Part shown: positions 4,164 to 10,536 of the stretch, one piece after another
How positions within the stretch are numbered: position 1 is the first letter of the stretch
How the letters are laid out: every line of letters begins with the position of its first letter
Virus record (IMG/VR): IMGVR_UViG_2648501299_000001
Coordinates: 1 to 16,106 of that record
Length of the DNA: 16,106 nucleotides
From: a virus
Taxonomy: Duplodnaviria; Heunggongvirae; Uroviricota; Caudoviricetes
Strand: one strand, 5' to 3'
The notes under the pieces: generated by a model
The model's input: only the letters and a program-made list of their open reading frames with translations
Databases searched by the model: none
What the model was told of the DNA's origin: nothing
Made by a program: the position numbers and the translations under genes

Positions 4164-4370
4164 TTAGTGATTCAGGCCGTTGCCGCGTCCGTCGAGAAAA
4201 ACTTCCACGAGCAAGTCACGGGTATAAGTGCGCTCGATGCCGCGATGCAGATAAAGCCGTCCGCGTAAATTAGCTGATGCAGTCCAGGTACCATCTTTGT
4301 GTTTGACCAGCATTCCTGGCATGACCGCACCGCGATTAACAGTCTGCGTTCCGTAATGTTGATGAACCAT
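4164..4370 (-). CDS. Small hypothetical protein at the kil/cIII position (68 aa; start uncertain)
   Basis: ATG at 4370 preceded by a strong RBS (GGGCAGGAG, 5 nt spacer). The frame stays open upstream to in-frame ATG 4454 and TTG 4574 (ORF-track 136 aa version), whose N-terminus is arginine-rich. Function not recognised. Confidence 0.45.
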
Positions 4371-4639
4371 AAAAACTCCTGCCCGTAAGCTGGGCTGCTG
4401 AACATATAAAGACTTCTGCGCGTATTCAGGCGGTGGATGGCCGCCGGTTGTCATAACTAAGCCGCCTCGTTGAAGCGACTGAGGTATGAAGTGTTGAGTT
4501 GATTTCAGCTGGTCACACCGACGTTCACGCGTCCGCTTCACCCCTCGCACTCCCCGGAGCCTGCTGAAATTCAAGCTGCGGATCTAAGCGGTCATCGCAA
4601 CGGTGAATCAGGTGATTGCCGTATCGTTGTGTTGTTGCG

Positions 4640-4700
4640 ATATGGTGATAATAGCTATTGCTATTGATGATATCAATACTTATTGCTATTGCTAGATGTG
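4640..4700 (-). promoter_or_regulatory. Candidate leftward early promoter (pL-like) with operator-like repeats (OL)
   Basis: On the minus strand: TTGATA (plus 4671-4676), 17 nt spacer, TATTAT (plus 4648-4653). Copies of the TTGCTATTG motif at 4658-4666 and 4683-4691 overlap and flank the promoter; the same motif recurs next to cI/cro (6764-6772, 6789-6797). Confidence 0.45.
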
Positions 4701-4813
4701 TTTTGATATTAAATGTTTGATAGCAAAAAGAATTAATTTTGTGACTTGCATCGCATAGCGATAACTGAAGTGAGGTGTGGTGGTTTTTTGGACGGTATGA
4801 GTTATGAGGGGGA

Positions 4814-4850
4814 GGAAAAGAAAACCCGGCGCGGTTGCCGGGGGCTTTTT
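4814..4850. terminator. Bidirectional intrinsic terminator closing the cI-cassette transcript
   Basis: CCCGGC-gcggtt-GCCGGG hairpin (4825-4842) flanked by an A/T run on each side: GGCTTTTT on the plus strand, TTTTCTTTTCC on the minus strand. Sits 25-60 nt downstream of the stop (4875) of the minus-strand 305 aa gene. Confidence 0.65.
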
Positions 4851-4874
4851 ATAGTGTGTTAGGTAAATAGAATA

Positions 4875-5792
4875 TCAGCCTACTGTTCTAAAGATGAGAA
4901 GTGGTGTCATCCCATACGAATCACTTCCTCTACCAGCTTGTACCTTGACCATATCCAGGAAGGATTGTAATCCTGACTTGAGATCGTGTTCAGGGAAATC
5001 AAGAGGGTTATTGATATTCTGATCTTGTACAGAATCTGGCAAGGCATCAATCAATCCAATGACATGCCAGGTACCCGGTATGGTGCCACCATATTTTAAG
5101 GCTAAGTCATCAGGATTAATTGTTAAATATTCTTTATCAATAGACATCCACATCAGGTTGCCATTCTCATCAATAAAATCAACCTGGAGGATGTTGGGAA
5201 CGATATTAATGAGTTTCTTAACTACACCAATGGTAAGCCCAGGAGATATCTCAATTTCATCTGGGGTGAGTTTCCCTTTAAGCTTCGCTTTGGCTTTTGG
5301 GGGAAGGTTGACCGTGTTTAATTGTGCTTGGGCTATCTCACCAAAAATAGGCATAATTTTCTGAATAGTTGACACATCAAAAATGCGCATTTTTCCAACA
5401 GAATGAACAACTGAACCAAGATTCTCACCATTAAGTCCAGTTTTAATCATTCCTGCTTCATCTAATTTATCGAGAAAATTAATTGGTAATGACCATGAAG
5501 CGTCGAAAGTTTTCTCTTGCGAATGTGTTAAGGCGTCGTCAGTCCCCACTTTTCCTTTAAGAATCTTGACGCTTAATTCAACGGATTTATTAGATTTATC
5601 TGTGTCAGAAGTAGTTTGTTTTACGCTCGTCACTACACCAGCATTGTGAAGCTGGGCTGTGAGGGAGCTAACGCGTACACGGTCTATGTAAAGAAAATCA
5701 AATAGTGAATCTGTGCTTTGTTGTTCGAGCTCCATTTTGCCAATCCTCTCTAAATTTTTCTTTTTCCTCGCGAATTCTTTTTTGCTTTTCAT
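4875..5792 (-). CDS. Hypothetical protein in AT-rich insert downstream of cI (rexA/rexB-equivalent position); 305 aa, or 286 aa from ATG 5735
   Basis: Long ORF with visibly lower GC than the flanking phage genes. The ATG at 5735 has a GAGAGG RBS about 9 nt upstream; the ATG at 5792 has a weaker context. Same strand as cI and followed by the terminator at 4814-4850. No motif recognised. Confidence 0.6.
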   Translation of the reverse strand: MKSKKEFARKKKNLERIGKMELEQQSTDSLFDFLYIDRVRVSSLTAQLHNAGVVTSVKQTTSDTDKSNKSVELSVKILKGKVGTDDALTHSQEKTFDASWSLPINFLDKLDEAGMIKTGLNGENLGSVVHSVGKMRIFDVSTIQKIMPIFGEIAQAQLNTVNLPPKAKAKLKGKLTPDEIEISPGLTIGVVKKLINIVPNILQVDFIDENGNLMWMSIDKEYLTINPDDLALKYGGTIPGTWHVIGLIDALPDSVQDQNINNPLDFPEHDLKSGLQSFLDMVKVQAGRGSDSYGMTPLLIFRTVG

Positions 5793-5877
5793 CTATCTCA
5801 TCGAAAAGTTGAATGAGTTCATCCACACCATGTGAAGGCGTCTCTGATTTCACTTTCTTCAAAATTTTCTTGAACAT
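5698..5877 (-). CDS. Possible small charged protein (59 aa) between cI and the 305 aa gene
   Basis: ATG at 5877 (MFKKILKKVKSETPSHGVDELIQLFDEIDEKQKRIREEKEKFREDW...). No clear RBS, and it overlaps the 5' end of the 305/286 aa ORF in another frame. Could be real or an AT-rich artefact. Confidence 0.25.
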   Translation of the reverse strand: MFKKILKKVKSETPSHGVDELIQLFDEIDEKQKRIREEKEKFREDWQNGARTTKHRFTI

Positions 5878-6026
5878 GATGATTTTCCATAGAGAACTGA
5901 CTGTACAAATTATGTTCTCTTTGTCACATGAAAGCAACTGTACCAGGACAAGCAAAGTGTGTCTCCAAAGATCGCTTTAATCACATGTTACAGCTTTTTT
6001 GTCAGCTTTGGTCCCATGAAGACGCT

Positions 6027-6719
6027 TTACCCATGCTTCCTGTATGTCTGCGGCATGCTCCCAATAACCTTACCGAAGATGAACACCCGGTTCATCTCGT
6101 CTTTCTCGATCGGGTCCCACGGCGAGTAGCTCTTGTTATCAGAGATAACCAGCAGCTTATCCTTCATCATTTGAAGACGTTTTACATGGGCAGTGTCGTC
6201 GTACAGAAACGCATAGATGCCATCACCGTCGAAAGATTTAACAGTGATATCAACGAACAGCAGGTCACCTGGTTCGATCGTTCCTGACATGCTGTCACCA
6301 CGCACGTTAATGATGCGGATATTTTCCGCCTTCCTGCCATCGAACATGTGACGAGCATCGTCAAACGAGTATTCAACCGAGCGTAGAACTTCTACAAACT
6401 CACGGTTGATTACACCCGGCCCGGCACTGACTTCCATATCAAGAACGTCAATTTTGAAGTATTTGGAATGGCTGACAGCAGGCTTCCCTGATTGTTGACC
6501 GTCATTTCTCATCGGGCCTATGCCTGATGAGAGCCATTCTGTTCGAACACCCAATGCATTAGCTATTTCAACAATTTTTGTTGAGCCGCGCGCGTTGCCG
6601 CTTGTCAGTCTCCAGATTGTGGGTTGAGCTACGCCAGACGCCTTTGCAAGAGCGCCTTGAGACATTCCAGATTGTTCCATCGCTAGGTTTAAGCGATCAG
6701 CAAGAGTTTCTTTTTTCAT
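6027..6719 (-). CDS. cI: cI-like prophage repressor (HTH-XRE N-terminal domain plus LexA/S24-type autopeptidase domain)
   Basis: N-terminal HTH (LADRLNLAMEQSGMSQGALAKASGVAQPTIWRL), an Ala-Gly candidate cleavage site (SAGPG), and S24 catalytic motifs GDSM (Ser) and VKRL (Lys). First ATG at 6719 has no SD, consistent with a leaderless or short-leader pRM-type transcript; the ORF-track start at 6755 is TTG. Divergent from the cro-like gene. Confidence 0.85.
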   Translation of the reverse strand: MKKETLADRLNLAMEQSGMSQGALAKASGVAQPTIWRLTSGNARGSTKIVEIANALGVRTEWLSSGIGPMRNDGQQSGKPAVSHSKYFKIDVLDMEVSAGPGVINREFVEVLRSVEYSFDDARHMFDGRKAENIRIINVRGDSMSGTIEPGDLLFVDITVKSFDGDGIYAFLYDDTAHVKRLQMMKDKLLVISDNKSYSPWDPIEKDEMNRVFIFGKVIGSMPQTYRKHG

Positions 6720-6755
6720 AAGTTTTAATTTATACGCTTGCGTATTGATGGTCAA

Positions 6756-6829
6756 AACACGTTTTGCTATTGCTTGGATTAATACGCATTGCTATTATTC
6801 ATTCATTGCAATACCAATAGGAATTGATA
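6756..6829. promoter_or_regulatory. Divergent cI/cro control region (OR-like operators, candidate pR and pRM)
   Basis: Plus strand: TTGCTT (6770-6775), 17 nt spacer, TATTAT (6793-6798) as a candidate pR. Minus strand: TTGACC then about 16 nt then ATAAAT just upstream of the cI ATG as a candidate pRM. TTGCTATTG/TTGCTATTA motifs at 6764-6772 and 6789-6797 overlap the -35 and -10. Confidence 0.5.
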
Positions 6830-9723: not shown

Positions 9724-10536
9724 ATGATTTTTATTAGTCATAATTATAAAGACAAAGCTTTCGTTGGGTATATTGCAGATAAAATTGCAGATATATATGG
9801 CAGGGATAACGTATTTTATGATTCGTGGTCAATTCAGCCTGGTGAAGGGATTATTGAACGAATGAATGATGGAATCGAATCCGTTAAAATTTTCTTTTTC
9901 TTTGTTACAAAAAATAGCCTTAAGAGTGATATGGTGTCTTTAGAATGGCAGAATGCACTTATGAAAGCCGCCACTGGAGATGTTAAATTCATTGCTATAC
10001 GTTGTGATGAATCACCTATGCCTGCACTTCTTACTCAAAAAGTGTATTTGGACCTTTATACAAATGGTATAGATGTAGTGATAGCACAAATGAATGATAT
10101 TATCTCTGGTAAAAGCACTTATAAACCTCAGGATGAATTATTCTCCAATCTTTCATATGACTTTAAAACAGAATCCAATAAAGTAATAGTTAGGGTTTCC
10201 GCTGATCATTTTAGCGAGGTTACCGCTGACTTTTTGTTCTTATTTACTAATAAATTAAAGGATAATGAATTAAGATATAATGTATTAGGTGAAAGTGGTT
10301 TTATCCAAGGTTTCCGTTCAGACTATAAACTAAGCACGGGTGAAGTGTTTAGCGCACAAATGGTTGCATTAATGCATGGTCTTAAACCAAAAATTCATTT
10401 GACTGTGGAGTTTTGGCTTGATTCAGGAGATGAACTTATTCTCGCACATGTTATGAGTAAAACATCAACAGATCAGTACACGACCATACCATACAAGAAA
10501 AAAACAGATTTTAGCGGCTTTAACATGAAATTCTAA
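9724..10536 (+). CDS. TIR-domain protein (N-terminal TIR-like domain, uncharacterised C-terminal domain); AT-rich insert
   Basis: N-terminus MIFISHNYKDKAFVGYIADKIADIYGRDNVFYDSWSIQPGEGIIERMNDGIESVKIFFFFVTKNSLKSDMVSLEWQNAL follows the TIR pattern: FIS(H/Y)xxxD box, W.D..I.PG, hydrophobic strand then S..S, and a conserved Glu in SLEW. The C-terminal ~150 aa are not recognised. Markedly AT-rich codon usage. Flanked by non-coding DNA on both sides. Confidence 0.6.
   Translation: MIFISHNYKDKAFVGYIADKIADIYGRDNVFYDSWSIQPGEGIIERMNDGIESVKIFFFFVTKNSLKSDMVSLEWQNALMKAATGDVKFIAIRCDESPMPALLTQKVYLDLYTNGIDVVIAQMNDIISGKSTYKPQDELFSNLSYDFKTESNKVIVRVSADHFSEVTADFLFLFTNKLKDNELRYNVLGESGFIQGFRSDYKLSTGEVFSAQMVALMHGLKPKIHLTVEFWLDSGDELILAHVMSKTSTDQYTTIPYKKKTDFSGFNMKF

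Follow-up and report, generated by a model that had tools for sequence, protein, structure and literature searches.

A prophage cassette downstream of cI that pairs a DUF6414 (DolA-family) gene with a conserved microprotein gene, a candidate anti-phage module

The validated defense system Dodola consists of DolA, a DUF6414 protein, and DolB, a ClpB-like protein (Millman et al. 2022, cited after bioRxiv 10.1101/2024.10.26.620412 and PMC11514479); the DefensePredictor supplement likewise gives a ClpB-like ATPase as the partner of DolA. According to earlier work cited in an S. thermophilus study (PMC11514479), Dodola protects B. subtilis against SPP1. Its mechanism was still listed as unknown in 2026, and AlphaFold modeling of the non-Clp protein returned only weak matches to folds of the DNA- or RNA-binding type (PMC11514479). 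The slot considered here is a known abortive-infection site, in the cI-to-N region, a mosaic hotspot for genes that include rexAB and bstA (PMC8585504).

We analyzed a 16,106-nt stretch of viral DNA (the window) in which this slot holds two overlapping genes, one encoding a 286-aa protein and the other, upstream, a 59-aa microprotein. The 286-aa protein and DolA both belong to PF19952, both units have two genes and lie on accessory or mobile DNA, and the weak nucleic-acid-binding-type folds of the non-Clp Dodola protein resemble the OB-type matches of the 286-aa protein. However, the cassette has no ClpB-like DolB, its partner gene being that of the helical microprotein; it is packaged as a prophage moron rather than as a defense-island operon, and no PADLOC model matches a cassette protein. 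We found no ClpB-like ATPase anywhere in the window, and no AAA or Clp protein among the neighbors listed or scanned in related loci.

Three other systems invite comparison. Lambda rexA and rexB are also a gene pair that follows cI on its strand and precedes pL/oL, and rexB has its own promoter, pLIT, as the cassette has its own, but the cassette shows no sequence similarity to them, encodes no membrane protein, and differs in gene sizes and order. With type II toxin-antitoxin (TA) operons, such as the Panacea (PanTA) pair of strain S51, it shares a small upstream gene overlapping a larger one, a promoter palindrome and a mobile location; it differs in lacking known toxin or antitoxin homology (none was detected in Pfam, NCBIfam or PADLOC) and in that its microprotein has no recognizable DNA-binding fold. 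BstA of the Salmonella prophage BTP1 likewise lies behind the repressor, ends at its own Rho-independent terminator and has a regulatory DNA element at the start of its locus (PMC8585504), but this system consists of one protein, from an unrelated family, and we detected no homology to the cassette.

Position and limits of the cassette

The window represents a lambdoid prophage of E. coli, a 100% identical copy of which lies beside tRNA-Thr and proA in EH10-18-47. The minus strand carries, in this order, exo, bet, gam, kil, a pL-like promoter, the cassette and cI; the plus strand carries cro, a YdaT-like gene, O, P and ren, then a TIR-domain gene, nin genes, Q and lysis genes. The upstream flank of the cassette is the cI-type repressor gene (6027 to 6719, minus strand; RefSeq WP_001295669.1), whose product contains HTH_3 and Peptidase_S24 domains (E = 1.4e-18) and matches phrog_4 (E = 1.6e-69). 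The downstream flank is a pL-like promoter with operator repeats (4642 to 4706, minus strand; TTGATA-17-TATTAT at 4676 to 4648, 10 of 12 matches). Operator-like TTGCTATTGC motifs (repeats D1/I1/I2) are common to this region and the cI-cro intergenic region (6748 to 6798), in agreement with the initial annotation, which had placed a leftward promoter and operators beyond the terminator. Like rexAB, the cassette is on the same strand as cI and fills the interval up to pL/oL. No N-like antiterminator gene was found between the pL-like promoter and kil, where some 280 nt (4371 to 4647) are unannotated and Rfam returned nothing; Rfam gave no match in the window at gathering scores and none in 4300 to 6100 at E ≤ 1.

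The limits of the variable cargo were set by alignment to prophages with other cargo. Four of these (L002, L003, L004 and L039) match the window up to position 4842 and again from 6027, 6028 or 6031, with 95 to 98% identity; since the alignments break off at 4842 and resume at the cI stop (6027), the variable segment spans 4843 to 6026. The unit had initially been delimited as 4814 to 6026, and the junctions agree with this almost exactly. On a different prophage backbone (L024), homology of 83.6% extends over exactly 4821 to 5937, from the terminator to the -35 hexamer, which delimits the mobile cassette proper on the minus strand: promoter, two genes and terminator. The AT richness noted earlier is also evident, the cassette having 38.9% GC and its surroundings more (cI, 48.1%; exo-kil arm, 52.1%).

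The cassette ends at an intrinsic terminator (4814 to 4850, stem 4825 to 4842) that was detected in both orientations and has both an A-run and a T-run. It had been described as strong and bidirectional; it is real and has a bidirectional form, but its hairpin is of moderate rather than high strength (-13.6 kcal/mol, z = -2.6). A hairpin plus T-run lies 3' of the cassette in four related loci (L005, L009, L010 and L015), and hairpins with weaker T-runs in two others (L013 and L019). A terminator scan found none between the cI stop codon and the cassette, so that read-through from cI/pRM is possible; because the cassette has its own conserved promoter, cotranscription with cI is possible but not required.

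The morons of lambdoid phages were reportedly defined by Hendrix and colleagues as promoter-gene-terminator units. The cassette resembles them in its own promoter and terminator, in a GC content below that of its flanks, and in its location between conserved genes at varied insertion sites, and we noted no anatomical difference. By these sequence features, the cassette is built like a moron, a transcription unit that stands on its own and passes horizontally between elements; the term names the packaging and not the function.

The slot, earlier described as a known site for prophage exclusion and defense genes, is a hotspot for cargo. An identical cI protein (WP_001295669.1) precedes either a Panacea-antitoxin pair (strain S51) or an unknown pair, and a cI gene ~97% identical in DNA (L004) precedes PDC-S42 at the same slot. 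In prophage L039 (IMGVR_UViG_2541047926_000009), cI is 100% and kil 99% identical and the flanks are 96 to 98% identical in DNA, whereas the DUF6414 protein is only 52% identical; these comparisons indicate that the cassette allele was replaced in place on the same prophage backbone. The locus adds to the documented cases in which lambdoid prophages have swapped alleles as well as cargo in the slot behind cI. In addition, the inverted repeat is missing from the promoter of the L039 allele, whose two genes overlap by 29 nt. The cargo of L004 (2750 to 3691; E. coli 23AR0806) is a 313-aa protein with a match to the PADLOC candidate PDC-S42 (E = 3e-86), and the name that RefSeq gives it in other genomes, "LAPAL motif-containing putative phage structural protein," is probably wrong.

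The two genes and their control region

The larger gene (4875 to 5735, minus strand) encodes the 286-aa protein and overlaps the microprotein gene by 38 nt. The open reading frames are as first reported, namely one of 305 aa (4875 to 5792), or 286 aa from position 5735, and one of 59 aa (5698 to 5877), all on the minus strand. The 305-aa start at 5792 was rejected in favor of the ATG at 5735, where 25 of 27 aligned homologues begin; the shorter form is also backed by RefSeq and by the PHROG match, which starts at residue 21 of the 305-aa form. The larger protein had been considered to have no recognizable motif. It is, however, a member of the DolA family: the match to Pfam DUF6414 (PF19952) reaches 39.8 bits, where the gathering cutoff is 25 (E = 6.1e-10), and covers positions 2 to 240 of the 283-position profile, PF19952 is precomputed on its homologues, and RefSeq names it a DUF6414 family protein.

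Other searches with this protein returned little. PADLOC gave no family match at E ≤ 1, in a release (PADLOC-DB 2.0.0) that may contain no DolA model, and no match at E ≤ 0.01 among 139 DUF6414 family representatives, except for one weak match to Stk2; since PADLOC models fail to match it, the 286-aa protein appears far from the experimentally tested DolA. NCBIfam and PADLOC had no match to either cassette protein, and sequence searches against solved structures gave E values no better than 0.2. An AlphaFold2 (AF2) model of the 286-aa protein has a pLDDT of 69, with residues 32 to 79 disordered, and found no match in the PDB or BFVD by Foldseek at E ≤ 1e-3. The sole fold signal of the cassette proteins is a predicted OB-like barrel. 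Neither protein has a transmembrane segment by Kyte-Doolittle hydropathy (19-residue maxima: DUF6414 protein, 1.33; microprotein, -0.43), and neither matches RexA or RexB in Pfam or PADLOC at E ≤ 1, which bears out the initial view that the large protein is unlike RexA and RexB. Our literature search found no mention of PF19952, phrog_9699 or the protein accessions, and DUF6414 was named in the main text of a single paper.

The 59-aa reading frame, at first listed only as possibly preceding the larger one, proved to be a real gene (5698 to 5877, minus strand): its product matches phrog_29688 (E = 9.5e-19), and the median dN/dS is 0.27 over the codons outside the overlap. Codon and sequence comparisons indicate that both cassette genes are under purifying selection. 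In the AF2 model (pLDDT, 72.6), the microprotein forms a short helix (residues 2 to 12) followed by one long helix (16 to 58), in which no DNA-binding fold is recognizable. The C terminus, encoded by 5698 to 5733, reads ...NGARTTKHRFTI and contains the motif G-[AS]-R-x4-R-F-x-[LIV]. This basic tail with its hydrophobic end presumably recalls ClpX-type C-terminal degrons, a likeness that we note in view of the ClpB-like ATPase partner in Dodola.

All 46 enterobacterial cassettes carry the small open reading frame, which overlaps the start of the DUF6414 gene by 38 nt (29 nt in one). At 21 of 21 distant loci, from Alphaproteobacteria, Burkholderiaceae, Craterilacuibacter and Alistipes, the upstream frame stops 8 nt into the xFDFLY motif and encodes a conserved core of 60 to 75 aa with the C terminus G-A-R-x4-R-F-x-L. 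Seventeen further viral loci agree in register, except for one frameshifted copy; apart from this copy, the frame ends in the same register at every locus examined (~80, from Proteobacteria to Bacteroidota). In the overlap region, the entropy of the motif G and R is 0.61 and 0.41 bits, respectively, versus 1.6 to 2.2 bits for the coencoded DUF6414 residues. The motif residues are thus more conserved than those encoded by the same nucleotides in the other frame, arguing that the motif is selected for its own sake. On these comparisons, the microprotein is an obligate and deeply conserved partner of the DUF6414 protein. In two genomes (NZ_CP104681.1 and NZ_CM169496.1), PGAP names it a "regulator of G-protein signaling domain-containing protein," a name that is very likely spurious for what is a charged helix.

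A putative cassette promoter lies at 5909 to 5937 (minus strand), with a -35 hexamer TTGCTT (5937 to 5932), a 17-nt spacer and a -10 hexamer CATAAT (5914 to 5909). The arrangement TTGnnn, exactly 17 nt, and CATAAT (24 sequences) or CATACT (2 sequences) is kept in all 26 distinct upstream sequences, which represent 46 cassettes, while the sequence around the hexamers diverges. A promoter-scan match, GTGACA-16-TACAGT, was dropped, as it is not conserved in the other cassettes, and was replaced by TTGCTT-17-CATAAT.

An inverted repeat, AGAGAAC-N16-GTTCTCT (5891 to 5920, minus strand; arms at 5920 to 5914 and 5897 to 5891), brackets the -10 hexamer and the transcription start predicted near 5902 and is a candidate operator. 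In 21 distinct cassettes, the perfect stem averages 6.4 bp, compared to 3.1 ± 0.42 bp in 1,000 shuffles, none of which reached 4.5. Some variants alter both arms together (TAGGAA/TTCCTA, AAGGAAC/GTTCCTT and AGAACAT/ATGTTCT). Five of the 21 cassettes deviate: L039 and L053 have no repeat, and in L005, L019 and L047 it is reduced to 4 bp. The repeat was also considered as an RNA hairpin, but its predicted fold is weak (-8.4 kcal/mol, z = -1.3), and transcription is predicted to start only downstream of its 5' arm; for these reasons, we favor a DNA operator as the better reading. To ascribe to the repeat a role in self-immunity, by analogy to the element of BstA, would be pure speculation.

Spread of the pair on mobile elements

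The close subfamily of the DUF6414 protein comprises 33 clusters at 90% identity, and all those with a named source are from Enterobacterales. A profile search extended the family to 1,136 clusters at 50% identity (E ≤ 1e-3), the best 150 of which are all single-domain proteins, mostly of 250 to 330 aa. Distant loci were located by a genome scan with a profile built from a 13-sequence subset of a 140-sequence alignment; a word-indexed homology search with the broad alignment recovered the same enterobacterial set only. A tblastn search with an AT-rich representative against plasmids and phages found loci in Proteobacteria only and none in Firmicutes, where the canonical Dodola loci are.

It had been proposed to check whether homologues recur next to cI-type repressors, and they do. 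At 28 of 36 IMG/VR loci, a repressor of the S24 or HTH_3 type is located just upstream on the same strand, and at least four kinds of prophage repressor precede the pair. S24 repressors precede it in the window prophage and in Serratia (L015), HTH_3 repressors in Rac-like prophages of Klebsiella and Enterobacter (L005 to L012), and a further repressor in Bordetella avium phages. The Bordetella phages vB_BaM-IFTN4 and vB_BaM-IFTN5 (OM293953.1 and OM293954.1) have two DUF6414 matches each, one right behind the annotated repressor; the small upstream frame is unannotated there, with 234 nt free for it.

The pair is not confined to this position. Tail or baseplate modules also harbor it, on the strand opposite to theirs in Pantoea (L013) and Rosenbergiella (L016) and on the same strand in Moraxella and Acinetobacter phages; in a Serratia fonticola prophage, it sits at the tail-fiber end. 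In Acetobacteraceae, Reyranella, Phenylobacterium and Methylocystis (L067, L070, L076 and L079), it is located directly behind an IS1595-family transposase gene on the same strand, and in these four Alphaproteobacteria the insertion sequence may carry it as a passenger. Elsewhere, it lies near genes for an integrase, an amidase or a Dam methylase. Each of the loci examined placed the pair on a prophage, an IS1595 element or an integrase island. Among 5,426 complete E. coli genomes, 9 have any detectable variant of the cassette, a rarity typical of accessory defense cargo.

Possible functions of the pair

The evidence from sequence comparison comprises the limits of the unit, its promoter and inverted repeat, the gene overlap, purifying selection, restriction to mobile elements and DUF6414 membership. 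It is consistent with a moron that carries a DolA-family protein and an obligate microprotein in a TA-like layout, and we consider this moron most likely to be a Dodola-related anti-phage module, acting by superinfection exclusion or abortive infection, a reading to which we give an even chance. The family link, the company that the cassette keeps at the hotspot, its mobility and the exchange of its alleles point to a defense function expressed in the lysogen. Under such a model, the cassette would be transcribed in the lysogen from its own σ70 promoter, possibly supplemented by read-through from cI, and the inverted repeat over the -10 hexamer would serve as an autoregulatory operator. The two genes would be translationally coupled, and the microprotein would bind the DUF6414 protein via its long helix and conserved C-terminal tail, either restraining it or serving as a required subunit. 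Upon infection, the soluble DUF6414 protein could engage phage nucleic acid or protein via its OB-like barrel and, once engaged, would block phage replication or host growth. The absence of DolB, the lack of a PADLOC match and a microprotein helix without a DNA-binding fold count against this interpretation. It is also conceivable, though we hold this only tentatively, that the pair is an ancient system distinct from the described Dodola and missed by PADLOC models, with the microprotein as a third Dodola component or an alternative to DolB, for example as an inhibitor controlled by a protease or unfoldase.

The main rival to the defense reading is a plain TA or addiction module that stabilizes mobile elements, in which the DUF6414 protein would be the toxin and the microprotein a labile antitoxin, with no role in phage defense. 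Association with mobile elements and the two-gene layout fit such a module equally well: the small upstream gene overlaps the larger one, the promoter coincides with a palindrome, the elements that carry the pair are invariably prophages, IS1595 elements or integrase islands, and sister prophages have a Panacea-type TA pair in this slot. Still, we consider it unlikely, given that searches of Pfam, NCBIfam and PADLOC linked neither protein to a known toxin or antitoxin family, and that Dodola defense is the only experimental link of the family; the two readings overlap, since many TA modules also defend. More doubtful is a moron whose benefit is unrelated to superinfection, such as a regulator, a stress or virulence factor, or an anti-defense protein of the lytic cycle. 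Morons encode many types of function, and the predicted OB-like fold would suit a nucleic-acid-binding regulator; however, a spread from enterobacterial prophages to Alphaproteobacteria and Bacteroidota argues against host-specific virulence, the DolA family link points elsewhere, and the allele swap of L039 on an identical backbone is as expected for diversifying defense genes.

Finally, the slot invites a Rex-like interpretation, in which the genes would be cotranscribed with cI from pRM and act by membrane depolarization. The position and strand are those of rexAB, at a slot known for abortive infection (PMC8585504), and read-through is conceivable with no terminator found after the cI stop. 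But there is no RexA or RexB match in Pfam or PADLOC and no transmembrane segment in either protein, the cassette's own promoter is conserved, and where the cassette is inverted inside tail operons, read-through from cI is impossible. Homology and topology exclude a Rex-like membrane mechanism, leaving this interpretation highly improbable. Of the overall picture drawn in the initial annotation, the slot, the hotspot, the distinctness from Rex and the recurrence beside repressors have stood, but not the motif-less protein or the merely possible 59-aa frame.

The slot and the DUF6414 family were already known. In the literature searched, we found no description of a microprotein-DolA pairing without DolB, of its deep conservation or of its promoter and operator. 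The cassette shows that the signature family of Dodola also moves in the absence of the ClpB-like ATPase and then invariably comes with a conserved microprotein, which is overlooked or poorly named in most genome annotations. This raises the questions of what role the microprotein plays and whether canonical Dodola has one; the E. coli cassette offers a minimal, clonable version of 1.1 kb with its native promoter.

The window contains another gene of interest in this regard. A 270-aa TIR-domain protein (9724 to 10536, plus strand) matches Pfam TIR_2 (E = 8.5e-20) and, weakly, the PADLOC TIR-NLR model (2e-7), with some 150 residues at its C terminus left unassigned. Its gene lies inside an island of 33.5% GC between ren and ninB and is probably a defense gene, the second AT-rich moron of the window.
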